This document shows, piece by piece, positions 13,601-28,290 of a stretch of 64,000 nt of DNA. The translations under genes and the position numbers were made by a program. Position 1 is the stretch's first letter. Every line of letters begins with the position of its first letter. The DNA lies in NCBI GenBank assembly GCA_041737595.1, contig JBGSRK010000010.1, positions 46,393-110,392 on the forward strand, written 5' to 3'. Origin of the DNA: Patescibacteria group bacterium (GTDB lineage Bacteria; Patescibacteriota; CPR2; UBA1875). The notes under the pieces are model-generated. The model made no database searches and had not been told where the DNA came from. It was given only the letters and a program-made list of their open reading frames with translations.

Positions 13601-16600
13601 TTCCTAAAGGATCAGTAACTTTTACTGGCCGATTAAGTCCGTCATATTCAATAGTAGAAATCTTACCAAGCGTAGATATATTCTTTATAATTAGCCCAAT
13701 ACTGTTATATTCGTTAGTCATAATTTCTCCTTTAGGAGTAACAGCCGTAAGAATATCTCCCTCCGAATTATAGGTATAACGGCTTACTTGTAATTTAGGG
13801 TCAGTAACCGAAACTATTCTGCCCATCGCATCATACCCATAAGTAGTAACCTTGGCGTTACTGTCGGTAACACTTAAAAGAAGTCTTTTACCATCTGTAG
13901 AATAAGTATATCTTGTAATTTGACCCTTCATATCTGTAGAAGAAGTCATATCATTCCCTACATATACATAAGTAGTTTTATTACCATCAGGATAAGTTGT
14001 CTCTAATAGATTACGATTAACATCATATTTATAATTTATGGAGTAGTAATAAATATCGTTTGTAGCAAGATCAGGGAATGTTTTTGTAAGATTAAAATTT
14101 ATATCATAAACATATTTTTCACGATAATTTTTAGCATTTGTCATCGTAGACAACATATTTGCACTATCAAACCCCAATTTAGTCACTCGACCAAGAGGGT
14201 CAGTAATAGTTGTTAATCTATCGACATATGTAATATTTGTTGCATTTCCGAGAGCATCCGTAATTGCATTAACTTTGTCCCCAGTATATGTTATCGAAGT
14301 AACAGCACCAGCTTTATCCCTAAATCTTTCTAATTTACTTGTTTCAATATATGAATATTCATAATAATTATCTTGACCATCAAACACTTTAGATAACACT
14401 CCATTTGCATCATATTCGTAACGAACCGCTTGATTTGCATTATTATTAACCTTTATTAGGCGACTGGCGGCATTATACTCAAACGCAAGTGACCGATTCT
14501 GATTAATTATACGTGAACAAAGACCATTAACATATTCATAACTTAAAGTATTACCTAATAAATTCGTTTTACGACTTATTTTCCCATCGGTACCAAAATA
14601 GCTTTTGTTACCAGATTTATCTAAAAGATAATATGTTCCATCCAAATTTTTAGTTAGAGATACAGTTATTCCTGCTGGTTTCTTATAGGTACCATCAGTA
14701 TTTTTTGTATATACATTAATATTTCCTGATCCATTTTTGTAATAGATATTTTCAGGATCAGATATATACAACCTCTCCTCAAAACTAGCACTCCAACCAC
14801 TCCCTAATACACCTTGATCTTTCCAAATTTCAGGGTTATAAGTACTATATATAAGCCCACTTAATGGTTGAGCAGATGTATTTGTAAATCTCGCCGACAT
14901 CTGCCAGCTGGCGGAGCCTTGAGAAACCTTTAAGGTAAGTGAGTTCCAGCCCTGTCGCAAATTTGCAGATACTATGTCACTATCAAGAGTTAGTGTTCTA
15001 GTAATTTCTCGAGAAATAAGAACTGTTCCATTTAACCAAGCCTTAATCCCATCATCAGAACCTAATCTTAATTGTACTGTCTGATCTGACGGTGAATAGA
15101 CATAAACATGAGCGTAGGCAGAAACATTAGTGGCCGTATCTACTTGGAAATTTGATAAACGGTGAAAAACCTGATTAAGTCTAACTTGAGTAGTCTCTGT
15201 TTCTGTTTCGGGGGCCCATAGATTATTACTTCCAGTCATACCTGGGCTTGGTTTCATAGTAGCTTCACCAGGTATAAATGCTTTAGTCAGCCTACTAGCA
15301 ACCACTGCTTCTTTATATGGACCATTAAAAAGCCATGTCTTTATATACCCATTTGCATCTTGATTAAAAGTCTTATTAGAAAGCTGATTTGAATCATAGC
15401 TTCTGCTAAATGAAACACCACCAATACTTGAAGGTACTGACATATCAGTAGAACTATAAGAAATTCCACCCGTTACAGCATCAACTGGCCCTACTTTAGA
15501 ATAAATCGAGTCAGACCCAATATGAGTTATAGAAGAAAATGATGGAGCACTTACCGTAACGGTTTTGAGACCCTTAACTACACCTTGATCAGAAAACCAA
15601 GTAATACCTGGCTGTATCATATCCCATTGAAGAGTATATGACCCAGCAATAGTTGGCACCTTCACTTTTGCTAAAACCGTTGTTATCCCACCCTTAGCAG
15701 CCACATTTGCTGGTATATCTGTCTGTAGCCCTGATTTTAAGACGGCACCGGTAGTATTATTAACCCAGTGATAACTAACCTTAGTTTGGCTAGATAACCA
15801 AACATTTCTACCCGTGTTTACAACTGTAATTGGAACTTCCGTCGTTGTACCTGCAAACATGGACGGTACATCAGTAGGATAATAAGTAGCATTATAATCA
15901 TTATAACTAACGGTTAATTTAGGATAACTATTACTGTAGTCAGGGTTATTCTTGGAAACCCAGGTGCGATAGCCCCAAGTACCTTCTGCGGTAGAGGCAA
16001 AACCAATAGAACCAATCCAAGATCCCGTGCTATTTCCACCTTCATACCAATGTCTCACTAGACTCGATACATCTTGATGGTACCAACCATATGGGTTTGC
16101 TTGTGAAGCAGACCCCCAACTATTAAGAAAAGCTGGTTTATTATTCCAATAAACATTAGTGGGGTTATAAGAAGCAGTTGTATAAGCAGTTACACTACTT
16201 GTAGGACAAACTCCATTACAGTTACCATATTGGTAAACATCAAAAGCAGCACTTAAAATTCGAGCACCAGAAAGGTCAGGTAAAGTAAACTTTGTTTCGG
16301 TTCTCATAATCCCTTTTGTTGAACCAGTCCCTACATATAATGCACGTTGATCCCACGATGTTGTTGTAGGATAACCACTTTGGACATAAGAATCCTCGGT
16401 TACATATTGAGTAATTGTAGGATCAATATAAATTGGGAATACACGCTCAGGTGCACTAAGCCACCTTAAGTCAGGTTTTACTGTTAAACGATAACCACCA
16501 GTAATAGTGCTTAAAACAGTGGGTACATTATAATTATATGAATTCTGTTCATTATCTTTACCACCTTTCGAATCCCACATTAAAAAACGTGGGATACGAA

Positions 16601-17309
16601 ATATTTCAGTATTAGTTCTTGCACTTACAATTTTATATGAACCATCACCTATCGCCGCAATTGTCCCACCACTTACAGCTAAGTCAAAAGAAAATTCTCC
16701 TAAAGAACTCTGTTTATAAAGTGTAATATATTCTTTTATACCATCATTAACTGAGTAAAAAGTTAAATCAGTATTTGGTATTACATTGGCATAATTAAGT
16801 TTATTAGTACCAGTTGTATAAGTTTTTGATGAAGCAGTTGATTTTGTAAGAAGCGTAGCACCTGTTTTAGATTTGAATTCACCAATATTGGCAGTAATAG
16901 AAACACCATCTTTATTTAATGAAAAACTTTTTTTTGAAAGATTCTTACTGAGTCTTAAATCAAAACTATTTTTATTATTTTTATAATCATCACCATATAA
17001 AAGACTACTTAAAAGACCAGTATCCGTAATATTTGAATCAATGTCCTCAAAAGTCCTTACATTATTTATTGTACTTTCATAATGCATAGGTATTTCGGCT
17101 GTTACTAGCTCCTTACTACCATCGGACTTAAGATAAATTTTGCTATTTTCTGTTCTTTTTGATGTAAGTTCTATTTTACCAGTGGCGGGTGGGGTAGGTT
17201 CTGCCTCAGCCGTAGCATCAGCAGCAGCAAAAGCAACTGATGGAGTAACTGGTAAAAGAGAAAACATCATTATAAATATTAAAAACCAGGAAAACATTTT
17301 TCTAAGCAT
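10641..17309 (-). CDS. secreted RHS/YD-repeat polymorphic toxin, 2222 aa: signal peptide, PA14-like and LamG-like inserts, YD repeats, RHS core (…YDPETGRFFSKDP…DPSGKG), Gly/Ala/Val-rich glycine-zipper segment, C-terminal GIY-YIG-like nuclease toxin domain
   Basis: N-terminal MLRKMFSWFLIFIMMFSLLPVTPSVAFA signal and many YEYD/YTYD/FEYD repeats. RHS core motif present. C-terminal YSVYVEKSAGVINYVGRTVDIVRRAKEW…GVEQIL resembles a GIY-YIG (URI) fold. GGAGGAGG RBS 5 nt upstream. GC clearly above the genome background. Confidence 0.85.
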   Translation of the reverse strand: MLRKMFSWFLIFIMMFSLLPVTPSVAFAAADATAEAEPTPPATGKIELTSKRTENSKIYLKSDGSKELVTAEIPMHYESTINNVRTFEDIDSNITDTGLLSSLLYGDDYKNNKNSFDLRLSKNLSKKSFSLNKDGVSITANIGEFKSKTGATLLTKSTASSKTYTTGTNKLNYANVIPNTDLTFYSVNDGIKEYITLYKQSSLGEFSFDLAVSGGTIAAIGDGSYKIVSARTNTEIFRIPRFLMWDSKGGKDNEQNSYNYNVPTVLSTITGGYRLTVKPDLRWLSAPERVFPIYIDPTITQYVTEDSYVQSGYPTTTSWDQRALYVGTGSTKGIMRTETKFTLPDLSGARILSAAFDVYQYGNCNGVCPTSSVTAYTTASYNPTNVYWNNKPAFLNSWGSASQANPYGWYHQDVSSLVRHWYEGGNSTGSWIGSIGFASTAEGTWGYRTWVSKNNPDYSNSYPKLTVSYNDYNATYYPTDVPSMFAGTTTEVPITVVNTGRNVWLSSQTKVSYHWVNNTTGAVLKSGLQTDIPANVAAKGGITTVLAKVKVPTIAGSYTLQWDMIQPGITWFSDQGVVKGLKTVTVSAPSFSSITHIGSDSIYSKVGPVDAVTGGISYSSTDMSVPSSIGGVSFSRSYDSNQLSNKTFNQDANGYIKTWLFNGPYKEAVVASRLTKAFIPGEATMKPSPGMTGSNNLWAPETETETTQVRLNQVFHRLSNFQVDTATNVSAYAHVYVYSPSDQTVQLRLGSDDGIKAWLNGTVLISREITRTLTLDSDIVSANLRQGWNSLTLKVSQGSASWQMSARFTNTSAQPLSGLIYSTYNPEIWKDQGVLGSGWSASFEERLYISDPENIYYKNGSGNINVYTKNTDGTYKKPAGITVSLTKNLDGTYYLLDKSGNKSYFGTDGKISRKTNLLGNTLSYEYVNGLCSRIINQNRSLAFEYNAASRLIKVNNNANQAVRYEYDANGVLSKVFDGQDNYYEYSYIETSKLERFRDKAGAVTSITYTGDKVNAITDALGNATNITYVDRLTTITDPLGRVTKLGFDSANMLSTMTNAKNYREKYVYDINFNLTKTFPDLATNDIYYYSINYKYDVNRNLLETTYPDGNKTTYVYVGNDMTSSTDMKGQITRYTYSTDGKRLLLSVTDSNAKVTTYGYDAMGRIVSVTDPKLQVSRYTYNSEGDILTAVTPKGEIMTNEYNSIGLIIKNISTLGKISTIEYDGLNRPVKVTDPLGTTIITEYSVGGNVIKTTDPKSNARLMDYDLLGRMIKATDEAGATTQFEYDKVGNKVKMINAKGKIFTYNFDVLNQIISQTDPEGNTINVTYDRNGNIVSTTDEKGNTSTSTYDKMGAVVNSVTPEGGSNNIYDKNHNVTAVTGTTSVNKLLYKNDFNITRQDSLAPISGSWNLTGGTYNQTDSSTAITTYRKSTIRNLNFSNGTVEFRVRRSSTTAPYFRLLYRSSGANNYYIGYIGSLWRAGAVITGQTEQYANGTGTLAVNTWYNIKIVSLGENVKLYVNNVKVIDYTFTRGLKEGQIELATYQTNASFDDLQVSSGSETVSVSYDPVNRPTQIATNTNGIARDAVDAAGNITQSVSATNTVSLTYDVNNQVTGVTNIQNSNGAVLASGQILRDAEGKITQITKANGDITRFGYDNGGRTISTVTTNRNAMVLASFGYEYDANSNVTSIIDKVRQERFNYSYDVRNQLTEDEKYSYSYDIAGNRLTRNGSDGVINYTYDENGDGNKLTQYNYTANDENNSYSATFSYDKSGNVTSRNNSKSGITNYEYDSSNKLKKAILPSGVVIEYIYDSNSGRRIQRIKTDTAGTKSYINFSYDGDMLISESDLNGNLIRAYTWDENENLISISIYNSDGTFKTYQYVKNAKGDVLGLTDTTGAKVVNYEYDSWGNVLKSETISDTVPANLNELNPRLYASYWYDSDLAQYFMKVRMYDPETGRFFSKDPVVASEFALDQNPYLYTANNPITRIDPSGKGFFSWVKNNAAAIVGGVVGTVVGVAVGAVVGLATGGLGTGAGYVAGAFVAGAITGALAGYVAGGVAGGLTQVAIDRASGKKSSIGNSFNNGFSKGSTAGAIGGAISGAISAGITAASVTILAKALVASSTTITAANGLADRTYSVYVEKSAGVINYVGRTVDIVRRAKEWSSDGRIVQEVYSNLTYAQARGVEQILIDNNGGLTNLANKINGISTLNPNYSHYINEGTKALLR

Positions 17310-17611: not shown

Positions 17612-20017
17612 TTATGATTTTACTTTTAGTTCTTTTGCAGTTTGTTCGAGGTCTTTTTTATCTACACTATCAGGAAGGGGCGTTTCAATCCCTGCTGCTT
17701 TTGTTGCAATCACATCTCCTGTGGCAATTGGACTCCCAGGTGTAACAGTTGCTCCTATTTCTGCTTTTGTATTTTCTAAAACTGATGGGCTAACCCCTAT
17801 TCCTGCAGCAAGTTCTCCAATAGCTGGGGTTGTAGGAGAACCAGGTGTTGGGGCAGGAGCAGAAGCTCGTTTTATTTTTAATTTTGATTTTATTGGTAAT
17901 TTAAATCCAAATACTGATCCTTTGCCTTCTTCTGAATGAAAAATAAGTTCTCCACCATGATCATCCATAACACGTTTTGCAAGATAAATCCCAAGCCCTG
18001 TTCCATCTGGACGAACATGTCTTGCGTTATCGGCTCGATAAAACTTAGTAAACAAATTTGCCTGTTGAGCCTTAGGGACACCAATACCTGTATCTGTTAC
18101 TTTAAAAATAACGTTTTCTTTATCATGTTCAAGGGTTATTGTGGCACTTCCTTCAGTCGTATAATAAACCGCATTATCTATAAAATTCATCATTACCTGT
18201 CTTATTTTTGTTTCGTCGGCCCAAACATGAGGAGTTTTGCCCTTTATTACAAGTGATAATTTTAATTTCTTTTCTTTAGCATGATTTTGTAATTGTTTAA
18301 CTTCTTCCCCTGCCACTCTTTCCATATCAATCTCCACTGGTTCAATAAAAAATCTGCCTGTTTCCATTCTTGATACATTCAAAAGATCATTTATTAACCC
18401 AACCATACGATTTGCGCCCGAAAAAGCCTCGTTTACGAAGTCGTATTGTGAAACTTTTATTTCCCCTGCATCACCTTCAAGCAACATAGAAAGATAGCCC
18501 TTGATGGCTGTAAGTGGTGTACGAAGCTGATGAGAAGCCATTGAGATAAATTCATCCTTAGCTTTATCAAGTTCTCGGAGCTGACTATTCTTTTTTTCAA
18601 GTTCATGAGTTGCTTTTTTAATCTCCTGCCGTAAAGTAACATTAAATTTTTCAATCTTTTCAAAAGACTTTGCATTAGTAATCGCAACTGCCATTTCTGG
18701 AGCAATAATTTCAAATATTTTATGATCAGAACCAGAATACATATCACCAGATTGTTTTTCGCCAAGAAGAAGTACACCAACTGTGTCTGCATTTGTTTTT
18801 ATCGGCACAGAAACAGAAACATTATATTTTTTTAGAAGTTTTTTATAATGAGATGAGTCTTCTAATTCATCACTAATTAATATGCCATCTTTTGCAAGCT
18901 TAACTATATCTGCTTCTTCTAATTTTATTGCTTCTTTATAACCTATGGTTTGAGAATTATATATCTCGCCAACATCTGTTAAAACAACTAAAACCCCTCT
19001 TGTAATTTTCATTTCACGCTGCAGAAGTTCAAGTATTTTATACATCATTTCAATAAGAACAATTGTGGAACCGATTGTATGCGCAAAAGTATCTAGAAGT
19101 GCCTCTGGATCATATTGATTTTTAAAGAATATTTTATCTGTAATACGCGTAATCCAACGCTTAAGTGGTTGGAAAGAGAAAGCCATAAGAACAGCAAGAG
19201 TTGTACGAACGGCCATTTGTCCAAGATTTAATGTGTTTTGTCCTGGGAATAAAATACGCTCAAATCCAAAAACACCTCCAGCGTAAATTGCCGCCATTGA
19301 AAATACCAGAATTGAATACGCCACAGACCGCGCCACCACCATCCGAATATCCATCATTTTATGTTTGACAATCGCATAAGCAGTAAATGATAAGAAGAAA
19401 ATTAAAGAAGAAGGGATAATGCTTGAACCAACAATCTTCCCTAACATTAAAGAAATCCCCAAAATTGACAATGCAATAACAGCAGTTAAAAATACTCCAA
19501 AAAACATCAGTTTAATCTGTTCTCTAACTATCCCTTTTGATTTATAGCGCTTATATAAAAGCATGCTAAGGGCTAAAATTGAATATAAAATAAAATATAT
19601 TTGAAAATATATATAAAGTTGGCCTGGAATCATTTCAGCTATATTCCCATCAACTATATTTACAGATAAATTTGAATTACTTAATAAATAAGGGAGAAAG
19701 AATAAAGGTGGCAAAAATAAAACTAGTTTGAATATTTTATTAATTTTTGGTTTTTCAATAGGAAAATATATAGAAAAAAGCAATAAAAAAGAAGCAATAA
19801 ATAATGCTCCTAATAATGTGGTCCTAGACCAAAAAAGTTCTCCACTTACAGTACTTGAAAAATCGGCAAGTATATTAGTTATTAACCATAACACCATTGA
19901 TGCACCAATCCCGGCAAAACTAATATTGATACTGTTTTTTATATTACGCAACAAAACTAATATTGAAATAAATATTGTTACTAATAAAACTAAAATTCCA
20001 ACGTATGTTCCAAACAC
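17612..20017 (-). CDS. sensor histidine kinase with N-terminal multi-TM sensor domain, HisKA (SHQLRTPLTAIKGY), HATPase_c and a Pro/Thr/Gly-rich C-terminal tail
   Basis: ~9 TM helices at the N-terminus, then H-box, then N/G1/G2 boxes (NFIDNAVYYT, DTGIGV, GLGI). 801 aa. Confidence 0.85.
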   Translation of the reverse strand: MFGTYVGILVLLVTIFISILVLLRNIKNSINISFAGIGASMVLWLITNILADFSSTVSGELFWSRTTLLGALFIASFLLLFSIYFPIEKPKINKIFKLVLFLPPLFFLPYLLSNSNLSVNIVDGNIAEMIPGQLYIYFQIYFILYSILALSMLLYKRYKSKGIVREQIKLMFFGVFLTAVIALSILGISLMLGKIVGSSIIPSSLIFFLSFTAYAIVKHKMMDIRMVVARSVAYSILVFSMAAIYAGGVFGFERILFPGQNTLNLGQMAVRTTLAVLMAFSFQPLKRWITRITDKIFFKNQYDPEALLDTFAHTIGSTIVLIEMMYKILELLQREMKITRGVLVVLTDVGEIYNSQTIGYKEAIKLEEADIVKLAKDGILISDELEDSSHYKKLLKKYNVSVSVPIKTNADTVGVLLLGEKQSGDMYSGSDHKIFEIIAPEMAVAITNAKSFEKIEKFNVTLRQEIKKATHELEKKNSQLRELDKAKDEFISMASHQLRTPLTAIKGYLSMLLEGDAGEIKVSQYDFVNEAFSGANRMVGLINDLLNVSRMETGRFFIEPVEIDMERVAGEEVKQLQNHAKEKKLKLSLVIKGKTPHVWADETKIRQVMMNFIDNAVYYTTEGSATITLEHDKENVIFKVTDTGIGVPKAQQANLFTKFYRADNARHVRPDGTGLGIYLAKRVMDDHGGELIFHSEEGKGSVFGFKLPIKSKLKIKRASAPAPTPGSPTTPAIGELAAGIGVSPSVLENTKAEIGATVTPGSPIATGDVIATKAAGIETPLPDSVDKKDLEQTAKELKVKS

Positions 20018-20053
20018 TTTCCCTCCGAATTTAATAAGCTATAAACCATTATA

Positions 20054-20719
20054 TTATTTTTTAGCAATAATTAGAACACTAGTATTACAGTAAACTAATT
20101 TTTTTGTAATAACATTTAGCCCACTATTATTAATGGCTTCGATTATTTCGTCTTTTTTATATATTCTAATATTTTTCGGATTAACTAAAAATATATTTAA
20201 CAAAAAAACTAAAATTAGACCTGGAGTATATATAATAATTTTAGGGATATATTTAGCCTTAATCCCAGTTAATGAACATTTTATAATTTTTAAAATATTA
20301 TTTTCAATTGAACTGGTTATTACTAATTCTCCATTTTCTGTTAATAATGAGTTAATTTCTAAAAAAAATTTATTTATATCATCTACCCCTATTAGAGAAT
20401 TTATTGAAATTATTTTTTCAAATTTTTTATTTAATGGATAATGATATTTATTCATATCATGGATAATAAAACTACCTTTTTTGATTTTTTTCTTCGATAT
20501 TTTAACCATCTGTTTTGAACTATCCATCATAGTAAAATTGCCAGTATCACCATATAATCTTTCAAAATTACCAGTACCTGAACCAATATCTAACACATTT
20601 TCATTGGAGTTTATATTTGAAGCAATAAATATGTTATTTAATAATTGATTATAAGAGGGTAACGCTAATAAAGAATTATATAAATATGAATAAACATGCC
20701 ATAAATATTTTTCTTTCAT
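20054..20719 (-). CDS. class I SAM-dependent methyltransferase
   Basis: Motif I VLDIGSGTGNF. Overlaps the ThiF-like gene by 4 nt (likely co-translated). Confidence 0.6.
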   Translation of the reverse strand: MKEKYLWHVYSYLYNSLLALPSYNQLLNNIFIASNINSNENVLDIGSGTGNFERLYGDTGNFTMMDSSKQMVKISKKKIKKGSFIIHDMNKYHYPLNKKFEKIISINSLIGVDDINKFFLEINSLLTENGELVITSSIENNILKIIKCSLTGIKAKYIPKIIIYTPGLILVFLLNIFLVNPKNIRIYKKDEIIEAINNSGLNVITKKLVYCNTSVLIIAKK

Positions 20720-21531
20720 TTTTTTAATAACTCATAAAAATCAATTTCATAATATTCTGGGGTGATTTTTAATTCTTTTTTATACACAAATTGTTTTATT
20801 ATAGCCATCTCAATAAGAGATGCTGCGGCCGTAACACCTAAACTAGTACTGGGAATATATGTTTCTCTTTTGAATATTTTTTGAGCCAAAGCTTTTGCAG
20901 TATAAGTAGGAATTTTAGGGCAAAACTTATTTATTGGGATTCTATGTTTGTTTATGGCCTCTGTTGTCATTTTTTCTGGTTTTTTTAATCCAATATAATC
21001 TTCAAATTTTATACTTTTATCAGAAAAAACAAATAAATTCGCCCCTAAACCAATTGCTTGAGCCGCAAGAACAATTTTATTATTTTCTCTGGCTACCTTA
21101 TGAAGTAAGTATAAATAGTAAGGCAGATTATATTCTATAGCATCTACAATAATATCTGATTGTACAAATCTTTGTACATTTTCTTCTGACACACCCTCTT
21201 TAAATATCTCTATCTTGAGATTGGGATTTATTTTTTTACAATTATCTAAAATTATATCGATTTTTTTTCTATTTATATTAGTAGAATCCGAAAAAATTTG
21301 TCTATTTAAATTTGAAATTTCAAAAATATCAGGTTCAGCAACTTTAAATTTTTCTATTCCAAGCCGAACAAGTCTTTCAAATAAAATTCCACCCACACCA
21401 CCAAGCCCAGCTATTGATACTGAAATATTTTTTATTTTCTCTTGTTCTTTTTCTGTAAAAACTCCAATATTCCTCTGAAAAATTTCATCATAAGTATATT
21501 TTTGTTTTTTATCGGACTTTTTGTCGGTCAT
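20716..21531 (-). CDS. ThiF/MoeB/HesA-family E1-like adenylyltransferase
   Basis: Rossmann nucleotide loop SIAGLGGVGG and the downstream conserved R..IF.D motif. 271 aa, no rhodanese or peptide-clamp domain visible. AAGGGGGA RBS. Confidence 0.75.
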   Translation of the reverse strand: MTDKKSDKKQKYTYDEIFQRNIGVFTEKEQEKIKNISVSIAGLGGVGGILFERLVRLGIEKFKVAEPDIFEISNLNRQIFSDSTNINRKKIDIILDNCKKINPNLKIEIFKEGVSEENVQRFVQSDIIVDAIEYNLPYYLYLLHKVARENNKIVLAAQAIGLGANLFVFSDKSIKFEDYIGLKKPEKMTTEAINKHRIPINKFCPKIPTYTAKALAQKIFKRETYIPSTSLGVTAAASLIEMAIIKQFVYKKELKITPEYYEIDFYELLKK

Positions 21532-21628
21532 AAATCCCCCTTGCTTTGTGCTTCCATAATAACATAAATGATACTTTCATAAAATTATAAATATAAATAC
21601 AAATTTAAAAGAACTGACCTTATCAAAA

Positions 21629-21653
21629 TTGATGGAAGTCGGACTTCCATCAA
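21629..21653. promoter_or_regulatory. 25-bp perfect palindrome TTGATGGAAGTC-G-GACTTCCATCAA
   Basis: 12-bp arms are exactly reverse-complementary. Lies between the regulator gene stop and the operator element A. Confidence 0.35.
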
Positions 21654-21658
21654 TTTAT

Positions 21659-21712
21659 CTACTTCACTTTATAAAAGCACAAGCAAATTATGTACTTCAC
21701 TTTAGTGACGTA
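21659..21712. promoter_or_regulatory. operator/repeat element copy A (TACTTCACTTTAT…AAGCA…TTATGTACTTCACTTTAGTGACG) ~130 bp upstream of the ThiF-like/MTase operon
   Basis: Shares a 30-40 bp core with copies at 24107-24161 and 24935-24970. Contains the inverted repeat CTTCAC-TTTA-GTGACG. Confidence 0.5.
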
Positions 21713-21746
21713 TCTAAATATTTATATGTTTATTTTTTCTTTTAAT

Positions 21747-22760
21747 TTATTCCGAGGTAGCATGTTTAATCATTACCTCTACTTCTTGACTTGCATTAAT
21801 GTATTTTACTTCTCTTTTCTTGTTTTGATTTGCCCAAACTCTAAAAATCTCATCAGCAAAGCCCTGCCCTATCATTTTTATACCCTTAAAATCTAAAGTT
21901 AAAATATCAAATTTACCAAGACCAAAAAGAATTCTTCTTGCTTGAGATCTGGAAATATAAACTGTATCGTTTTTATAAAGATTTACTTTTATTTCTGTTT
22001 TAGTAAACTTAAATGTTTCAGGATCGGAATACTTATTAAAAACATCAGAGAGATTTTTGATAGCGTCTTTTTTAATAGAAAAAGAAACCCGAGTCCCGCA
22101 TCTTTTTGGGTTAGTAGCAAGAAAAACGTCGGGTATGGTATTATCAAAAATAATTTTATGCCCCGAGCCATATATTATAAATTTATCTGCAATCTTTGAG
22201 GTAAAAAAAATCCCTTCACCCGAATGTGCCTCTGGCGCGGTGGTTTGTTTCCCTTTCATTAAATCTTGTATTGCTTCAATATCTGACTTTAATTTTTTTT
22301 TCTTCCTTATATTATTAAAAATACCAACACCATCATCTGAGATATTAAAATTAATCAGATTATTATCTTTTTCAAATTGAATATTTATTTTTTCAGATTT
22401 TGAATGATCTATCGCATTATTAAGCATTTCGGTAAATGCATAAGTAATAATTTCTTTTGTTTTTTTACTAACATCACTAAACAATGTTTCATCTTTTATT
22501 CTGTCCCAAATAAAATCCTCGCTCAGGTCCTTATTTTTAAATTCCCGCATTAAAACCTTGCTTGCAAAGTTTTTAGAACCAAGAACATAAATAGCTTTGT
22601 TGGCCCTACCAATAAGAGATATTTCACCTAGGCGAACCATTTCACTCATCTTTCGTTGTATATACGCACGACTATAGCCAGTTTCAAGTGTAATATCTGA
22701 AACTTTAATTTGCCCTTTTTCTTTTATTCTCTTCTTTACTATTTCTTTTATTTTTTCCAT
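21747..22760 (-). CDS. putative transcriptional regulator: N-terminal winged HTH + GHKL (HATPase_c-like) ATPase domain + C-terminal STAS-like/DUF4325 region
   Basis: The N-terminal ~70 aa is HTH-like. N-box EMLNNAIDHS, G1 DDGVGI, G2 GEGIFF. Sits centrally among three promoters carrying the shared operator. Confidence 0.55.
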   Translation of the reverse strand: MEKIKEIVKKRIKEKGQIKVSDITLETGYSRAYIQRKMSEMVRLGEISLIGRANKAIYVLGSKNFASKVLMREFKNKDLSEDFIWDRIKDETLFSDVSKKTKEIITYAFTEMLNNAIDHSKSEKINIQFEKDNNLINFNISDDGVGIFNNIRKKKKLKSDIEAIQDLMKGKQTTAPEAHSGEGIFFTSKIADKFIIYGSGHKIIFDNTIPDVFLATNPKRCGTRVSFSIKKDAIKNLSDVFNKYSDPETFKFTKTEIKVNLYKNDTVYISRSQARRILFGLGKFDILTLDFKGIKMIGQGFADEIFRVWANQNKKREVKYINASQEVEVMIKHATSE

Positions 22761-22819
22761 GATTTGTTTACAACTTATTATAATTAGATTTTATATAGTT
22801 GTATATAAGTTGTCAACTA

Positions 22820-23203
22820 TTAAACTTGATTATTAATCTTTTCTTTTAACTTATTCCAAAATAAAAAGGTTGAAATAAAAATCCAACCAATAAAAAGCAC
22901 CCAGAACCACCAAGGAATATTTCGGCCCCAACCAATTACATAAATATATGGCATAACCCAAGCGGCTCGATTAACCACTAATGGGAAAATAAATCCGTTT
23001 TCGGTTAGAATATCTGTAATTTTAAGATTTAAATTTTTGTCTTTATATCTTTTTCTAAAATCTACTGCCTCGCGCAAAAGCCCATACCAACCGAAGTAAT
23101 AGAATGGGACAGAAAATAACATCAAAAAAATAAATATTTTTGGGTCAACATGATATTGGTTAACAGCGAGATCGTTCCATATCTGAATAATATTAATATT
23201 CAT
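22820..23203 (-). CDS. small integral membrane protein (3-4 TM)
   Basis: Hydrophobic segments with W-rich PWWFWVLFIGWIFI. Overlaps the GNAT gene by 11 nt. Confidence 0.45.
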   Translation of the reverse strand: MNINIIQIWNDLAVNQYHVDPKIFIFLMLFSVPFYYFGWYGLLREAVDFRKRYKDKNLNLKITDILTENGFIFPLVVNRAAWVMPYIYVIGWGRNIPWWFWVLFIGWIFISTFLFWNKLKEKINNQV

Positions 23204-23981
23204 CCCTTATGAGCCCCCCTAAACTAACAATAGAACGAACCACAACTTCGTTACCTGGTTTTAAATAATGTTTTGCAAAAATTCGAAGCTTTTTATCTGG
23301 GATATTTTCTGTTTCTCTAAAAATAAGATTCGGCTTATCATCATAAAAACCTATCATTACGTCACCACATCTATCAAGTTTTCGATAAGTTTCACCTGTT
23401 GCTTTAAGATAAAGATTGATCGTTTCCCAAGTTCTATCATCTGCATAATCAATCTTCCCTGTTTTCTCGTCTACTTTATACGGGTTAGGATAAATAAAAT
23501 CAGCCACTTTTGCTAAAGCCCCAATAGTTCTAATATTAGGAGTAATAAAAACAAACTCAATTTTTGTTTTAAAGTGTAATAAATTTTCCATGAATATTTT
23601 AAGGCCAAGAGTAGCATGCATTTTTTTCATAAAGCCAAGCCCTTGATAATCAGGGTCAACAGCCGTAAGCCCAAATGAATACACATATCTTCCATCAATA
23701 TGAATTTTTTTAATCGGGGCTACCCCAATTAGATCATCCTTATTATTTCTTAAAAGCATTAAATATCTTGTATGTAAAATACTGTTTTCCAAATATTTCT
23801 TAGGAAATTTGCCCCAAGCTTTTTCAACCACTTTTGAAATCTCTTCAAGCGCTTCGGATTGATTTTTTTTAGGGATATTGTTTAGCGAATCTTTAATTAT
23901 TTCGGCATAAAAATGAACACTCTCTGCAGAGCGTACCACTCTTAATTCTTTAACATTACTAAATTTAGAATAACGCTTCAT
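23193..23981 (-). CDS. GNAT-family N-acyltransferase-like protein
   Basis: Motif A-like YQGLGFMKKMHA (Q/R-x-x-G-x-G/A) preceded by a beta-strand rich region. 262 aa. Confidence 0.5.
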   Translation of the reverse strand: MKRYSKFSNVKELRVVRSAESVHFYAEIIKDSLNNIPKKNQSEALEEISKVVEKAWGKFPKKYLENSILHTRYLMLLRNNKDDLIGVAPIKKIHIDGRYVYSFGLTAVDPDYQGLGFMKKMHATLGLKIFMENLLHFKTKIEFVFITPNIRTIGALAKVADFIYPNPYKVDEKTGKIDYADDRTWETINLYLKATGETYRKLDRCGDVMIGFYDDKPNLIFRETENIPDKKLRIFAKHYLKPGNEVVVRSIVSLGGLIRDEY

Positions 23982-24106
23982 TAATAATTGCTTTAACCAC
24001 TACATTTTAACATAATTTATTATTTTTTATCATAAAACTTGTAATTCAAAAAAAACTAAAAATCAATTAACTCCATTCACAATAAATGTGTATATACCAC
24101 ACTACT

Positions 24107-24161
24107 ATACTTCACTTTATGAAAGCATAAGCATGTTATGTACTTCGCTTTAGCGAAGTGG
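24107..24161. promoter_or_regulatory. operator/repeat element copy B (…TTATGTACTTCGCTTTAGCGAAGTGG) ~125 bp upstream of the GNAT/membrane-protein operon
   Basis: Inverted repeat CTTCGC-TTTA-GCGAAG. Relative to copies A and C the A:T pair is replaced by G:C in both arms (covariation). Confidence 0.5.
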
Positions 24162-24174
24162 TTAGACAAAAAAA

Positions 24175-24843
24175 TTAAGAAACTTTTTTTCTATATTTTT
24201 TTAGAAAAACTTTAATTGTTTTTGATAAAATCTTTCCAAAGTCTTTTTCTGATTTCGCAATTTTTTCGATATCTTTTCTAAGATTTTGGTGGTTTGGATA
24301 TCCTTTAGACGGTATACTCCATTTTTCAAATTCAGGGTTCAGAAGTACTGTTAGCGCTTCTTTAATATCATGTGCTTGTTGATTTGAAAGACCAGCATCA
24401 AGCATCATCTTCCAATAATATTTATGAACTATAAGATGCATACATTCATGCATCGCAGTTTTATAAAACCAATCTGGACTTGCCCCATAATGGGCATAAA
24501 ATCCCCCATCATCCGAATCATATGGACAACGCATATTAGTTGTAAAAATTACATAAACTTCTTTAAATGGTACTTTTTTACCAGTTATTTTTATAAGAGG
24601 TTCTTCTATATTTTTTGGATTTATGGCAACCTGCATCCATTCAATATATTTTTTTACTGCACCACTCTTATAATATTTATTATTTAAATATGCACGCATT
24701 TTCTTTTTATCATGAGCATCCTTTTTTGTTAGATCTTTGGGCCAATTTTTAAGCCAATCCTGCCCATAGGAACCTGTATTATTTAAGGTTTCTTGCCAAT
24801 TCCAAACATCACTAGATATACTTTCCTTATATATTAATTTCAT
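24175..24843 (-). CDS. hypothetical HExxH protein (possible zinc metallopeptidase)
   Basis: HECMHLIVH motif. 222 aa with a K-rich C-terminus. Strong AAAGGAGA RBS. Confidence 0.45.
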   Translation of the reverse strand: MKLIYKESISSDVWNWQETLNNTGSYGQDWLKNWPKDLTKKDAHDKKKMRAYLNNKYYKSGAVKKYIEWMQVAINPKNIEEPLIKITGKKVPFKEVYVIFTTNMRCPYDSDDGGFYAHYGASPDWFYKTAMHECMHLIVHKYYWKMMLDAGLSNQQAHDIKEALTVLLNPEFEKWSIPSKGYPNHQNLRKDIEKIAKSEKDFGKILSKTIKVFLKKYRKKVS

Positions 24844-24934
24844 TTTATCTCCTTTTACTACTTATAATTATTCTACCACTAATTACTTAAAATATTATAT
24901 TCCTTATCTTAAAAATATAGACCTAGATATTATA

Positions 24935-24970
24935 ACATAAGCATGTTATGTACTTCACTTTAGTGACGTG
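24935..24970. promoter_or_regulatory. operator/repeat element copy C (AACATAAGCATGTTATGTACTTCACTTTAGTGACGTG) overlapping an extended -10 (TGtTATAAT) upstream of the HExxH gene
   Basis: Near-identical to the right half of copy A. In gene sense it sits just upstream of TGTTATAAT. Confidence 0.5.
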
Positions 24971-25008
24971 ACTATATAAATTTTACTAAATATATTTATT
25001 TTTATTCA

Positions 25009-25032
25009 CTTTACTAATGTACATTAGTAAAG
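25009..25032. promoter_or_regulatory. 24-bp perfect palindrome CTTTACTAATGT|ACATTAGTAAAG in the divergent greA / HExxH intergenic region
   Basis: 12-bp arms exactly reverse-complementary with no spacer. Confidence 0.35.
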
Positions 25033-25100
25033 TAGTTAAAAATATTTTTAAAAAAATGAATAAATATCGGTGTTTGTGATAAAATTTATCTACATATTTT

Positions 25101-25571
25101 ATGAACTATTTATATTTAACCCCAGAAGATAAAGATAAGGTCGAAATAAAAATCGACCTGTTAAAACATGAAAAGGAGTTATTTTCACGAAAACTTGGAG
25201 AAGCTGCAGCACACGGTGGGTCATTCCCCCAAGGAATTCCAGAATATGTTGTTCTTGAAAATAAAATTCATCGGTTGGAAGATGAAATGATTTTGCTTAA
25301 AAAAATATTAGATGAATACGAAATTATCGAAATAGAAAAATTACCAAAAAATATTATTACTACTTATTCCAATGTAAAAGCAGAAAATAATGAGAATATA
25401 ACTACCTTTCAAATAATCGAGTCTATAATATCTAAAGAAAAAGATGGAATAAAAATAGTTTCTCCCAAAAGCCCTGTTGGTTCGGCGTTTCTTGGGAAAA
25501 AGAAAGGAGAGGTTGCAAAAGTCAACCTCCCCCAAAAAAACGAGATATATAAAATTCTAGAAATTAATTAA
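25101..25571 (+). CDS. greA: transcription elongation factor GreA
   Basis: N-terminal coiled coil (LTPEDKDKVEIKIDLLKHEKELFSRKLGEAAAHGG) and C-terminal FKBP-like SPKSPVGSAFLGKKKGEVAKV, both GreA/GreB hallmarks. Confidence 0.8.
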   Translation: MNYLYLTPEDKDKVEIKIDLLKHEKELFSRKLGEAAAHGGSFPQGIPEYVVLENKIHRLEDEMILLKKILDEYEIIEIEKLPKNIITTYSNVKAENNENITTFQIIESIISKEKDGIKIVSPKSPVGSAFLGKKKGEVAKVNLPQKNEIYKILEIN

Positions 25572-25577
25572 TCTTTT

Positions 25578-25898
25578 TTATATTTTCCCAATATCATCTG
25601 TCTGAAGTGCTTGATTCATTTCAATAATTCTATTTTTTAATAATTCAAATTCTTCTCGAGCAATGATATCAATATTAGGAACATTATCTACAATATATTT
25701 ATTTGCTTCTTCATTTTTACCTTCAGCAATAATTTTCTCAAGTTCTTTAACTTTTTCTTCAGGTAATTCATCCATAATTCTTGATGAAATTTTTTCTTCT
25801 AAAATCTCTGCGTATTTCTTGCGCATCTCGTCTTTTTCTTCATTACTTAAATGTTCAAGTTTAAGTTCTTTAATTAAATCAAATTTTAGATCTGTCAT
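25578..25898 (-). CDS. hypothetical acidic helical protein
   Basis: 106 aa, E/K-rich, no motif. Confidence 0.35.
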   Translation of the reverse strand: MTDLKFDLIKELKLEHLSNEEKDEMRKKYAEILEEKISSRIMDELPEEKVKELEKIIAEGKNEEANKYIVDNVPNIDIIAREEFELLKNRIIEMNQALQTDDIGKI

Positions 25899-25908
25899 AA
25901 TTCCTCCT

Positions 25909-28290
25909 TTAACCCATTAATGTACCAACCCAAGTTAACGAACCTGCAGGTAATCCAACTGCAATGCCAGCAATGCCCATATTTCTTAATATATGATTTC
26001 TAACAATATTCTCTTCATCATGTCTCTTATCTATAGATCTATCAAAAGTTCTTATAGACTCTAACAATATCTTACTCCTAGCTGCTTCAATTTCTCCAAG
26101 AGTTAATGGGATTTTTTCACCTTTTTTTTCTTGAGCTTTTTTTAGTTCTTTTTTAAGTTTCTCGACTGTAAGCACTTTAAGTCTTTTCGTCATTTCTTCT
26201 ACTTGGTGTTCATAACTTAGTCTATCTTCCTCATGTGCACCTCTTATCGGATGTACACCAGTCCCAATTCTTTCGCCAACTCTTATATTATGTGCAGCCT
26301 GTGCACCAAGTCTTTTATAAATATCATCTTCTGACATTGCATCAATTACTCCAGATTCTTGTTTATGTAATAAACTATCTCTATTTCTATTCCTTGTCTC
26401 AGAGAAGGCGTGAGTTGCAGATGCTGCAGATGTGGCACCAAGTAGCCCAACAACTATTGGTAAACCGCCACTAGCTGTTAGAGTAATGGCTGCACCAGAA
26501 ATAGCAATTGATGCGACAGATGAAATAACTGGATGTTTTCTAATAAAATTTTTCACCTTCCGATAGGCACCACCAAACAAACCTTCATTATCTTCTTTAT
26601 CAGCTTCTTCATTAATTCTGTTTTTACTTTCTTCTTCAAAAAATAATTTTGCGGTTTCTTCGTGAACTAAATCAAAGAAAGATTTTGCCCATTTTTCTAA
26701 TTTTTTATTGTATTGTTCAAGAGTTTCTTTAGGTTTTGGTTTTAATCTTTCCCATTCATCCATTTGCATAGGTCTCTTTGGTTTTATATCTCTTTTTGCA
26801 TTCTCATATTCTTCTATTGTTAATGGTTCTTGAGGTTTTTCATCTTTATGTTTAATTAATGATTTTTCATATTTAGCCACTTTAAGATCAAAATCAATTT
26901 GTGTTTCGTTTACCCCTCTTTTTGGTGGTACTGGTTCACTGCCTTTCCAAGCCTTTAATTTTTTATCATACTCATATGGGTTTCTCGATTCATAATTTTC
27001 TTTCCATTCTTTTTCTCTCAAAGTATATTTATATGGGCTCACATCATCATTAGCTTCTTCCCATTCTTTTAATGTTTTTTCATAAGTCTCTTCTGTTTCT
27101 ATTCTTTCGGGCCTTCTTCCACGTTCACTTCTTTTAGCCCTTGCTAATCCTTCTTGATTCGCATAATTTAGGATACCTGATTCATATTCAACACGAGCAC
27201 GATTTAATTCACCCTGTTTAGCTGGGTTCCAAGTGAATTGTGATCTAAGTTTTCTTTTATCTAAAAGTCTATCAGTATAATTGTTTCTTAGTGTTGAAAT
27301 ATCAATATATCCGCCTGTTTCTCCTGAACTTTCATATAACTTAGTTGCAGTTTCAATTAATGTATAGTTTGTATCATCGATTTTTTCAGTTTCAGACGGT
27401 TCAACAGAATCACCATCTTCACTCCTTGGCTTGTTCCCACTCCCATCATTATCACTATTTTCTCCATCCTCCCCAGTAGTTGCTGGGGGAGTATTATTTG
27501 GGTCTGGTGGAGTTGATGGTTGAATTGGAGGTTGAACAGGCTCTTCGTCTTCATCTTCTTTAGTTTCTTTTTTACCCTCTTCTTCTAAAATTTTATCTAT
27601 AGTTGAAATAGTATCGTTAATCCATTCTAATGTGGTTCTTATTTCAGTTGAAGTCCCTTCGTCTTCGACATGAGATCTTATTAAAATTTGAATCGCAAGA
27701 AGAACTTTTTTCATTTTTTTCGCATCTATCATATCTTCTACAAATTCAGCGGGGTTATTACTAATTTGTTCTAACTTAGCCAATAAACTTTTGACCCCTT
27801 TGGGAGAAATTTCAGTTAATACTTTTAATATTTCTTCTGATAGAAATTCACCACCTTTGGCTTTTTCACCTTTTTCTTCTACTTCTTTAGCCTCTTTTTC
27901 TGCTCGTTCTTTTGCTATAATTTCATCTAATTTCTCTTTTTGAGCCTTTTCCATTTCTCTTTTTGCAGCATTTTCTTGTCTTTGAGTTACTTCAAAAAAT
28001 GGTCTTATTTCACCAACTCTATCCCCAGTTTCATCTATAATATCTCCTATACGCGCGCCTCCACGTACTAAAGAATCATTCGATTTTATTCTAGAATTAA
28101 TTTGATTTCTAGTTTGTTCGACTGTCATATCTGACTGCTCGGCAATTTCTTGAACATTGGTTGCACCTAAACCTTCGGCAGTTTTAAAATCATCACCAAA
28201 CTCTCCATTATGCATAGAGTCTGTATATTGAGTAGTTGGAGACTTATCTCCTCCCCCCTCTAATTCATGATATGAAATAACTTCGCTCAT
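25909..28290 (-). CDS. large hypothetical acidic protein with Pro-rich linker and two C-terminal hydrophobic hairpins
   Basis: 793 aa. Long E/K/D-rich coiled-coil-like regions, PPIQPSTPPDPNNTPPATT linker, and C-terminal TM-like AISGAAITLTASGGLPIVVGLLG and GIAGIAVGLPAGSLTWVG. Confidence 0.4.
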   Translation of the reverse strand: MSEVISYHELEGGGDKSPTTQYTDSMHNGEFGDDFKTAEGLGATNVQEIAEQSDMTVEQTRNQINSRIKSNDSLVRGGARIGDIIDETGDRVGEIRPFFEVTQRQENAAKREMEKAQKEKLDEIIAKERAEKEAKEVEEKGEKAKGGEFLSEEILKVLTEISPKGVKSLLAKLEQISNNPAEFVEDMIDAKKMKKVLLAIQILIRSHVEDEGTSTEIRTTLEWINDTISTIDKILEEEGKKETKEDEDEEPVQPPIQPSTPPDPNNTPPATTGEDGENSDNDGSGNKPRSEDGDSVEPSETEKIDDTNYTLIETATKLYESSGETGGYIDISTLRNNYTDRLLDKRKLRSQFTWNPAKQGELNRARVEYESGILNYANQEGLARAKRSERGRRPERIETEETYEKTLKEWEEANDDVSPYKYTLREKEWKENYESRNPYEYDKKLKAWKGSEPVPPKRGVNETQIDFDLKVAKYEKSLIKHKDEKPQEPLTIEEYENAKRDIKPKRPMQMDEWERLKPKPKETLEQYNKKLEKWAKSFFDLVHEETAKLFFEEESKNRINEEADKEDNEGLFGGAYRKVKNFIRKHPVISSVASIAISGAAITLTASGGLPIVVGLLGATSAASATHAFSETRNRNRDSLLHKQESGVIDAMSEDDIYKRLGAQAAHNIRVGERIGTGVHPIRGAHEEDRLSYEHQVEEMTKRLKVLTVEKLKKELKKAQEKKGEKIPLTLGEIEAARSKILLESIRTFDRSIDKRHDEENIVRNHILRNMGIAGIAVGLPAGSLTWVGTLMG

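Follow-up and report, generated by a model that had tools for sequence, protein, structure and literature searches.

Gene content of the region

The stretch of DNA analysed here (the window, 64,000 nucleotides (nt) of contig JBGSRK010000010.1 from an uncultivated, small-genome Patescibacteria group bacterium) carries, between 17.6 and 24.8 kb, a run of genes that all lie on the minus strand and are interspersed with three copies of one short repeat element. An earlier note on this DNA had proposed that the element is a shared operator and that the genes constitute one co-regulated system, possibly following the logic of microcin C, under a regulator encoded in their midst. The genes are the following:

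17612-20017, minus strand: HisKA_7TM histidine kinase, the conserved right-hand neighbour of the ThiF/methyltransferase pair
20054-20719, minus strand: class I S-adenosylmethionine (SAM) methyltransferase (MTase; Pfam Methyltransf_31/25/11, about 1e-10), 4-nt overlap with the ThiF gene
20716-21531, minus strand: stand-alone E1-like ThiF-family adenylyltransferase of 271 amino acids (aa; Pfam ThiF, 1.6e-29)
21747-22760, minus strand: regulator composed of a winged helix-turn-helix (wHTH), HATPase_c_2 (RsbW/SpoIIAB-like; Pfam, 3.4e-9) and DUF4325 (STAS-like; Pfam, 5.5e-13)
22820-23203, minus strand: small membrane protein of 127 aa without family match, 11-nt overlap with the GNAT-like gene
23193-23981, minus strand: GNAT-like acyltransferase of 262 aa, member of a rare family with a conserved C-terminal extension of ~130 aa
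24175-24843, minus strand: stand-alone gluzincin-type metallopeptidase-like protein (HExxH at residues 132-136, invariant E162)

The six domain calls made before hold, with the GNAT assignment being weak in this protein and carried by its family, and the overlaps of 4 nt (ThiF/MTase) and 11 nt (GNAT-like/membrane protein) are as described.

Copies of the element and their positions

A repeat search of the window revealed a three-copy repeat family, all on the plus strand and with 35-52 nt per copy:

21660-21711 (annotated span 21655-21712), plus strand: copy A, with half-repeat TACTTCACTTTA at 21660-21671, a spacer, and the second half-repeat plus inverted arm at 21693-21711
24108-24159 (annotated span 24107-24161), plus strand: copy B, 87% identical to copy A, with a perfect 18-bp palindrome at 24142-24159
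24918-24969 (annotated to 24970), plus strand: copy C, 75% identity, the shared part covering only ~24935-24969

The 23-nt core TTATGTACTTCRCTTTAGYGAMG has three exact matches in the 64 kb as opposed to none expected in shuffles, and an nhmmer profile built from the three copies matches those three only (E about 1e-15). The three copies reported before are thereby confirmed, and the window holds no other. The upstream half-repeat TACTTCACTTTA is indeed seen in copies A and B. The right boundary of the element is sharp, after GAMGT, and copy C has only the last ~35 nt in common with the other two. A sixth TTCACTTTA half-site is found at 25005, within the second of two palindromes that flank the block, and six of the eight window matches to TTCRCTTTA fall in a 3.4-kb stretch, all on the plus strand. 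Several signals lie next to the copies:

21556-21564, minus strand: predicted extended -10 TGTTATTAT, putatively of the ThiF/MTase operon, read from the sequence downstream of the first palindrome
21626-21656: first palindrome, perfect over 31 nt, 15-nt arms 100% complementary, TTTT next on the gene strand
24091-24099, minus strand: predicted extended -10 TGGTATATA, a putative assignment read from the sequence, with a second candidate, TGTTAAAAT, nearer to the GNAT start
24937-24929, minus (gene) strand: extended -10 TGTTATAAT at copy C, read from the sequence
24997-25044: second palindrome, arms 88% complementary, with a perfect 24-bp core at 25009-25032

The earlier placement of all copies in promoter regions is borne out in a positional sense for copies B and C. 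Copy B begins 13 nt past the HExxH stop codon and is followed directly, in gene sense, by TGGTATATA; copy C abuts the perfect extended -10 TGTTATAAT upstream of the HExxH gene, with a divergent GreA-like gene beyond. It does not apply to copy A, which begins 35 nt past the regulator stop codon and thus belongs to the 3' flank of the regulator gene and not to the ThiF core promoter. The 31-nt palindrome, longer than first described and likely the terminator of the regulator gene, stands between copy A and ThiF. The predicted ThiF -10 TGTTATTAT, which corresponds in type to the TGGTATTAT promoters that recur in related genomes, and a strong Shine-Dalgarno (SD) sequence lie beyond it.

Several established classes of sites do not describe the element. 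Inspection of either strand gave no consistent hexamers of sigma70, sigma54 or extracytoplasmic function (ECF) promoters and no match to an integration host factor (IHF) site. A LytTR-type direct-repeat promoter is contradicted by a spacing of 33 nt instead of 21-22 and by the sole nearby response regulator being receiver-only, and an intrinsic terminator by the missing U-tract after the hairpin. A mini-ORF or leader peptide (MYFTLVT before a stop codon in copy C, MRYTALGK before a stop codon in related genomes) was rejected as well: the frames range in length between 7 and 68 aa and lack an SD sequence, all between-copy differences are non-synonymous, and shared codons are identical at wobble positions. 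Plus-strand frames starting ATG-TAC-TTC are open in each copy, at 24948-24971 (7 codons), 24138-24215 (25) and 21690-21896 (68). The 7-codon MYFTLVT is superficially similar to a heptapeptide precursor, and the peptide is not conserved.

Pairing within the element

In copies A and C the inverted repeat forms the hairpin ACTTCAC TTTA GTGACGT with one T.C mismatch, and in copy B it is a perfect 8+2+8 palindrome, ACTTCGCT TT AGCGAAGT. One of the eight hairpin pairs is changed on both sides (A-U to G-C) and the mismatch is repaired in copy B. This compensatory change had been taken as the mark of a functional site. The change is present, but it amounts to a single pair in three sequences and the covariation is not significant, as 160 of 500 shuffles were equally good. 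In a DNA quasipalindrome, one point mutation followed by template-switch correction produces the same change without selection. It is, on the other hand, unlikely by chance that all three substitutions that separate copy B from copy C lie in the hairpin arms with pairing kept or improved.

The latter finding would fit a stem-loop in gene-strand RNA, located in intercistronic or 3'-untranslated regions and possibly engaging in alternative pairings between AAAGUGAAGUA segments, that stabilises or processes the HExxH and regulator transcripts or tunes read-through into the next operon. The positions of copies A and B 35 and 13 nt past stop codons agree with such a role, as do their gene-strand folds, with z values of -3.0 and -3.2 compared to -1.5 for the other strand. 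Nevertheless, we regard it as unlikely. Copy C lies upstream of, or across, the HExxH -10, with the divergent gene beyond, and is probably not part of the gene-strand transcript. No U-tract follows the hairpin, the hairpin is out of register in the related element of two other genomes (described below), in which sequence and not pairing is invariant, and the covariation is the single pair that template switching could yield. Furthermore, a search with the covariance models of Rfam 15 over positions 19000-27000 (E<=1) left the element unmatched. The sole match of that search was sub-threshold, to an L20 leader at 25493-25581 on the minus strand (29 bits versus 58.7, E 0.016). A strong terminator-like hairpin (25533-25505), located where the GreA-like and DUF5663 genes converge, overlaps this match, which is probably just that terminator.

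Related elements in other genomes

Relatives were gathered through the regulator, ThiF and HExxH proteins and compared by tblastn; their loci carry L numbers. Two of them, L002 and L013, each contain three copies of TTGRTGCGCTACACTGCTTTAGGGAAGT within 2.5-3.2 kb of the syntenic region, the first just after the HExxH gene. A third, L014, has two copies of a 30-bp palindrome that has TTTATGAAAGCATAAG in common with copy B, and again one of them is located just after HExxH. When the L002/L013 element is compared with the whole window, copy B matches best (14/15 and 16/20), and it occupies the syntenic site immediately 3' of HExxH. The three-copy profile from the window has its best foreign match at the L014 site, which also lies just 3' of HExxH. 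Since neither match is significant alone, the homology of the elements rests on position. A hairpin, TAGTTGGAGGTCCGACCTCCAACTA, similar to the 31-nt palindrome of the window, adjoins the element in L013.

A sign of constraint comes from the comparison of L002 with L013. Their third-codon identity is 55-59% and yet the 24-nt core GCGCTACACTGCTTTAGGGAAGT is identical, which argues that the element is under nucleotide-level selection in these genomes. Also identical is a sigma70 promoter 17-19 nt downstream of the core, while the hairpins on the upstream side show no relation to each other. Of the six L002/L013 copies, five are followed by a promoter box at a distance of 17-28 nt. In both settings the element appears to be locus-specific, as there are only three copies in 64 kb of window and the L002/L013 copies are confined to the syntenic region. 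Metagenome scans with the window-type and the L002/L013-type element gave no match, in a collection that lacks the L002/L013 sample and is therefore uninformative, and scans of viral contigs gave two chance matches in coding sequence only.

These comparisons also bear on the notion that one intergenic or promoter segment was duplicated and left remnants that have no function and resemble each other because they are recent. The copies are 75-87% identical across as many as 52 nt, which is much for a binding site, they end sharply, and the lowest GC content of the window (25.5%) suggests recent acquisition. Given, however, that the related L002/L013 element is invariant across genomes with saturated synonymous sites, that the differences between copies B and C are confined to the hairpin arms, and that similar sequences occur at the syntenic position in three other genomes, we consider this notion very improbable.

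Repeated sequences at unit boundaries are found elsewhere in these islands, too. L002 repeats a 26-nt promoter before three successive cassettes, and PemK, HicAB and DUF5674 cassettes are bracketed by repeated sequences of 20-26 nt in L014 and L002. Cassettes that resemble those for ribosomally synthesised and post-translationally modified peptides (RiPPs) are present in the relatives and absent from the window; they combine either a radical SAM (rSAM)-SPASM protein with a Cys/Asp-rich peptide or an M16 protein with an acidic peptide. The Cys/Asp-rich small open reading frame (ORF) of L014 (3818-4083, containing TPCDDDGSGIDCNCDCDCHDCVDCDSGTDWTGDND), located immediately behind the rSAM-SPASM gene and ahead of the HExxH gene, looks like a RiPP precursor in a genome of the Candidate Phyla Radiation (CPR) type. 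Upstream of such cassettes (acidic peptide plus M16, or rSAM-SPASM), behind a conserved sigma70 promoter, we noted a conserved, structured 5'-untranslated region in L002 (5470-5560), L013 (9865-9950), L014 (2395-2468) and L020 (6100-6175), which is absent from the window. It has an outer stem AAGCUCC/GGGGCUU, an inner covarying stem (GCUGG/CCAGC, GCUAG/CUAGC, GCCAaGG/CCUGGC) and a GGGA loop, and has no Rfam match.

The regulator gene is an insertion with an inverted repeat of its own

The wHTH-GHKL-DUF4325 protein, in which the N-terminal wHTH is a weak call, belongs to a very large family (over 7,400 homologues, about 50% identical). The neighbourhoods of its members are unrelated: in a CPR2 genome, for instance, the gene adjoins ComEC, and in a Bacteroidota-like genome it is surrounded by Por-secreted proteins. 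Matches were absent from phage and plasmid collections, and functional literature on the DUF4325 family was not found. At the position it has in the window the gene is absent in L014, L008, L010 and L013 (tblastn). In L014, the best syntenic relative, the membrane protein gene ends at 6686 and ThiF starts at 6687, and because the two are adjacent there, the regulator gene is an insertion between them. It is present at this locus only in the window and in the contig of an identical strain (L001), and in L002 it resides elsewhere in the island. The gene carries its own promoter:

22816-22788 within the spacer 22761-22819, minus strand: regulator promoter TTGACA-17-TAAAAT, the best promoter match of the region (11/12)

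This sigma70 promoter begins 4 nt past the stop codon of the membrane protein gene, in a 59-nt spacer that reads TTGACAACTTAT...TATAATAAGTTGTAAAC. Its -35 and -10 boxes are flanked by the inverted repeat ACAACTTAT/ATAAGTTGT, which is kept in the window, in L002 and in the CPR2 locus L003, where the proteins encoded behind it are only 54-58% identical. Within the window the motif occurs at the regulator promoter and once inside a coding region. In a distant Bacteroidota-like homologue, two pairs of another inverted repeat, TTATAGAAT/ATTCTATAA, occupy the same position. Lineage-specific inverted repeats thus accompany promoters of this family in the window (22761-22819), L002 (7950-8000), L003 (7930-8000) and L025 (5895-6000). 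Conservation and placement make ACAACTTAT/ATAAGTTGT the probable autoregulatory operator of the protein, bound via the wHTH, and the repeats suggest that members of the family are one-component proteins which control their own genes and in which the kinase and STAS partners of a switching pair are fused. The predicted DNA specificity of the regulator is consequently unrelated to the element. The element contains nothing like ACAACTTAT/ATAAGTTGT, and no copy of it is located at the regulator's own promoter in the window.

This brings us to the regulon proposed before, in which the element would be the operator of the wHTH-GHKL-DUF4325 protein and the ThiF/MTase, GNAT-like/membrane protein and HExxH units would respond to it together. 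In its favour, the island in the window encodes no other DNA-binding protein, the element combines dyad symmetry with a direct half-repeat, and L002 possesses both the regulator and a copy of the element ~120 nt upstream of the regulator gene. These points are outweighed by the insertion of the gene at this locus, by a different inverted repeat as its conserved cis-feature in three genomes, and by yet another inverted repeat at the same place in the distant homologue. Moreover, the window and L002 have markedly different element sequences despite the conserved DNA specificity inferred for the regulator, and L013 has three copies of the related element with no regulator gene within 9 kb on either side. 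The related element of L014 likewise occurs without a regulator gene in the locus. The proposal therefore has little probability left.

The HExxH gene as a relocating unit

The metallopeptidase-like protein is a member of a rare family of 17 proteins. Its AlphaFold model is of high confidence (predicted local distance difference test, pLDDT, 93), and it combines a zincin fold, the HExxH motif and a downstream Glu ligand, the features of gluzincins. Its gene is found after an M16 gene and before an rSAM gene in L020, between a TsaB-like gene and the RNase Y gene in L022, and after an XRE gene in L017. Due to these different genomic places it is a relocating single-gene unit. The gene content behind it also differs: the window has the GNAT-like gene there, L014 has PemK, and L002/L013 have a peptide plus M16.

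In three genomes the HExxH gene is bracketed by direct repeats, and the three repeat sequences are mutually unrelated. In the window these are copies C and B, 810 nt apart. In L022 a 29-nt repeat (8920-8948/9674-9702, 90% identical, 754 nt apart) occurs only twice in 12.7 kb, and in L017 the repeat comprises 37 nt (8894-8930/9748-9784, 81% identical, 854 nt apart). Co-regulation of HExxH with the downstream gene, be it GNAT, RNase Y or methyltransferase, is unlikely, and copying of a host upstream module upon insertion explains the bracketing better.

Bracketing repeats may also be viewed as recombination joints, i.e. att-like direct repeats that result from, or serve, the insertion and exchange of cassettes by a recombinase encoded elsewhere. 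The copies are all oriented alike and lie at the borders of stretches that vary in gene content, the bracketing of HExxH by repeats of 29-37 nt and of the PemK, HicAB and DUF5674 cassettes by shorter ones would be accounted for, and the hairpin could serve as a structured site. We rate this as quite unlikely, considering that no IntI, other integrase, transposase or recombinase is encoded in the island versions or in the window ORFs scanned (up to 48 kb), that the cassettes bear their own promoters, and that integron core sites are lacking, with no RYYYAAC/GTTRRRY pair seen on inspection of the three copies. In addition, the HExxH-flanking repeats are wholly different between genomes, and the regulator has a copy on one side only. 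The perfect 24-nt core of L002/L013 fits a recognition site and a regulatory site equally.

A conserved four-gene module beside a histidine kinase

A module encoding the GNAT-like protein, the membrane protein, ThiF and the MTase beside a HisKA_7TM kinase recurs in L002, L008/9, L010 (without MTase) and L014. The GNAT-like/membrane protein pair and ThiF/MTase adjoin or nearly adjoin each other in five or more other genomes, and a homologue of the membrane protein is encoded directly after the GNAT-like gene in L002, L008 and L014. The kinase gene directly follows ThiF(-MTase) in L002, L008/9, L010, L013 and L014, with protein identities of 57-67%. In L008 the GNAT and ThiF operons have a common 31-nt promoter (87% identical). 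A functional link between the two gene pairs is supported by this gene order, and the four-gene module, always beside the 7TM histidine kinase, is the stable core of the island. Directly downstream of the kinase gene the window encodes a 2222-aa secreted RHS/YD-repeat-like protein with a variable C-terminal region (10641-17309), possibly a polymorphic toxin.

ThiF has no RiPP recognition element (RRE), no rhodanese domain and no CxxC pairs (only two Cys). Its best NCBIfam match is NF006077, a 'hypothetical protein' model (172 bits, below cutoff), and the best PDB match is an uncharacterised THIF-type protein (9egb/9egc, 1e-14, full length); literature on 9EGB and PRK08223 was not found. A ThiF scan of a collection of genome contigs gave only two distant relatives. 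The MTase reaches no NCBIfam equivalog cutoff and has diverged strongly, with 26-27% identity to the MTases of relatives where these match at all. The match of the GNAT-like protein itself to the GNAT family is weak (0.006), yet 19 of 36 family members match Acetyltransf_1, with values down to 1.9e-10. The family has 61 representatives among 1.84 billion proteins, and its profile matches only GNATs in the PDB, weakly. A single-sequence AlphaFold prediction for the GNAT-like protein was too poor for use (pLDDT 34), and an Acetyltransf_5 protein in L011 was rejected as a homologue at 20% identity.

The ThiF protein is 58-62% identical to those of L008, L010 and L011 and 34-37% identical to those of the closest syntenic loci L014, L002 and L013. 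The ThiF/MTase slot has been replaced by a distant variant (window 20054-21531 versus L014 6687-8217 and L002 12135-13682), while the flanking GNAT-like protein and kinase, 79% and 67% identical to their L014 counterparts, remain orthologous. L002 additionally carries a truncated ThiF duplicate (11634-12080). The GC content drops to the window minimum of 25.5% at 20001-22000 compared to ~33% elsewhere, which is consistent with a foreign origin of the regulator/ThiF/MTase segment.

A mosaic island and a proposed host-specific joint element

We conclude that the region, part of a Patescibacteria/CPR-like genome, is an accessory island of mosaic make-up and not one regulated system. Unrelated self-contained units, namely the HExxH gene and the wHTH-GHKL-STAS gene, have been spliced around and into the four-gene module, and the equivalent slots in relatives hold PemK, HicAB and rSAM- or M16-based RiPP-like cassettes. 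What survives of the co-regulated system put forward before is the link between the GNAT-like/membrane protein pair and ThiF/MTase; the regulon does not, in view of the insertion of the regulator, its probable own operator and L013 with copies and no regulator. The comparison of neighbourhoods that had been recommended gave a corresponding picture, with the module next to the 7TM kinase kept and the regulator and HExxH genes not being fixed parts.

Considering the copies and their positions, the insertion of the regulator, the mobility of HExxH and the nucleotide-level constraint on the relatives' element, we tentatively, and with somewhat less than even confidence, interpret the element as a constrained, host-specific, promoter-upstream joint module at unit boundaries that is bound by a putative host factor. 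Its action would be in cis and as DNA, with the element serving upstream of promoters as the site of a factor encoded outside the island. An association with promoters is indicated because copies B and C abut an extended -10 and five of the six L002/L013 copies are near a promoter box. The type of element follows the host and not the cargo, since the regulator cassette is accompanied by the window-type element in the window but by the L002-type one in L002. Whenever a unit is added the element would be copied, such that direct repeats come to bracket the inserted gene.

Several points weigh against this interpretation. No binder was found, and no DNA-binding protein except the regulator is encoded in any island version. 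The offset of the element to the nearest promoter box varies between copies, and in the best alignments to the relatives' element the window copies run the other way relative to the genes; a fixed promoter architecture would show neither. Copy A is followed by a terminator-like palindrome and not by a promoter. Copying at insertion leaves copy A unaccounted for, and the regulator insertion has the element on one side only. The homology between the elements of the window and of relatives is confined to a core of 15-20 nt that is not significant by nhmmer (E 0.66-2). The gene-strand fold of copies A and B is better than that of shuffles and may point to a role in RNA. Finally, the copy counts cover 64 kb of the genome.

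A more far-reaching model, which we regard as doubtful, holds that in small CPR-type genomes single genes such as the one for the HExxH peptidase move as promoter-bearing mini-cassettes and that their insertion duplicates a host promoter-upstream module of 30-50 nt. Host-specific repeats would then arise at the joints without a cassette-linked recombinase, and the copies would be footprints, possibly also substrates, of an undescribed cassette-exchange process that diversifies the island.

If the element is indeed a joint module, the region provides a concrete example of accessory-gene shuffling and promoter wiring in Patescibacteria/CPR genomes, in which, to our knowledge, gene regulation and gene flux are almost unstudied. 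It also brings to light three uncharacterised objects: a rare E1-like four-gene module next to a 7TM kinase, a rare compact gluzincin, and a widespread wHTH-GHKL-STAS protein with a self-operator. For genome scans the case advises caution on two counts. A local repeat beside the sole HTH gene does not by itself make a regulon, and one compensatory change within a palindrome of DNA carries little weight.

Comparison with known systems

The parallel to microcin C, suggested on the basis of the enzyme set, does not persist. RiPP ThiF-like adenylyltransferases (TLAT) are defined by an N-terminal RRE/peptide-clamp domain of ~90 residues (PMC12250964). The lack of such a domain, already pointed out before, is borne out: the 271-aa protein consists of the adenylation domain only, the Pfam match starts at residue 19, and the alignments to MccB (E 4e-6) and PaaA (4e-8) cover the Rossmann core only, starting at MccB residue 87-90 and PaaA residue 127. 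There is no plausible precursor ORF in the three spacers, and all Asn-ending mini-ORFs at 17-31 kb lie inside genes or lack ATG/SD, in agreement with the earlier failure to find one. The only one in a spacer is a GTG-started 6-mer (24158-24178) not common to the other copies. The genes compared include no dedicated exporter, no MccE/MccF-type immunity and no S66 peptidase, the one membrane protein of the set is that of 127 aa, the GNAT-like protein is not of the RimL/MccE type, and HExxH is an independent relocating unit. The region resembles microcin C/TLAT RiPP clusters (PMC12250964) in that an E1-like enzyme adjoins a class I methyltransferase and a GNAT-fold protein and in that the island of relatives holds RiPP-like cassettes (rSAM-SPASM, M16, small peptides). 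It differs in having no RRE, no Asn-ending precursor, no exporter, and a GNAT-like protein from a separate rare family. The four-gene module may have a peptide-related role.

Other E1 enzymes are no better matches. Ordinary ThiS/MoaD-activating ThiF/MoeB proteins, named before as the identity that would speak against a novel system, were rejected on the basis of scores for ThiF models (92.5, 79.5 and 72.2 bits versus cutoffs of 159, 275 and 152) and MoeB models (59-65 bits versus 266-377), and no sulfur-carrier ORF, i.e. none of 40-120 aa ending in GG, is present at 17-31 kb. The tRNA ct6A dehydratase TcdA was likewise rejected (NF011696, 49 bits versus 304; PDB TcdA, E 1.7e-10, N-terminal half only), as was a CBASS/Cap2-type E1-E2 protein, for which PADLOC matches the E1 core only (E 1.7e-16, profile positions 369-520 of 607). 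The other PADLOC defence models did not match any of the six proteins.

The RsbW-type GHKL kinase and STAS-like domains of the regulator are reminiscent of the partner-switching systems RsbW/RsbV and SpoIIAB/SpoIIAA; here they are fused in one chain with an N-terminal wHTH, and no sigma partner is encoded nearby.

With repetitive extragenic palindromic sequences and bacterial interspersed mosaic elements (REP/BIME) the element shares the occurrence of short hairpin-forming repeats just after stop codons. It differs in not being dispersed, with three copies of one orientation inside 3.3 kb and the remaining 60 kb empty of them, and a RAYT-type gene was not seen. Dispersed repeats of the REP/BIME or miniature inverted-repeat transposable element (MITE) type require many copies in both orientations and were rejected, as there are three in 64 kb, all on the plus strand.

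Integron cassette arrays have in common with the island co-oriented unrelated genes with imperfect palindromic repeats between them and a gene content at the repeat positions that varies among relatives. The elements described here are much shorter and more alike than usual attC sites, the cassettes have their own promoters, and the type of repeat is host-specific.

There is also a resemblance to reused or mobile promoter repeats, described for prokaryotes in work on promoter reuse and propagation, where the same upstream sequence is found before non-homologous genes of one genome. Unlike these, the window element contains no recognisable promoter, has a hairpin and a half-repeat, is placed at variable offsets from -10 boxes, and in one copy precedes a terminator-like palindrome. 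It is similar in that near-identical segments of 30-50 nt lie upstream of unrelated genes, next to -10 boxes, and the same habit is seen in the relatives, with the common 31-nt promoter of L008 and the 26-nt promoter in front of three cassettes of L002.

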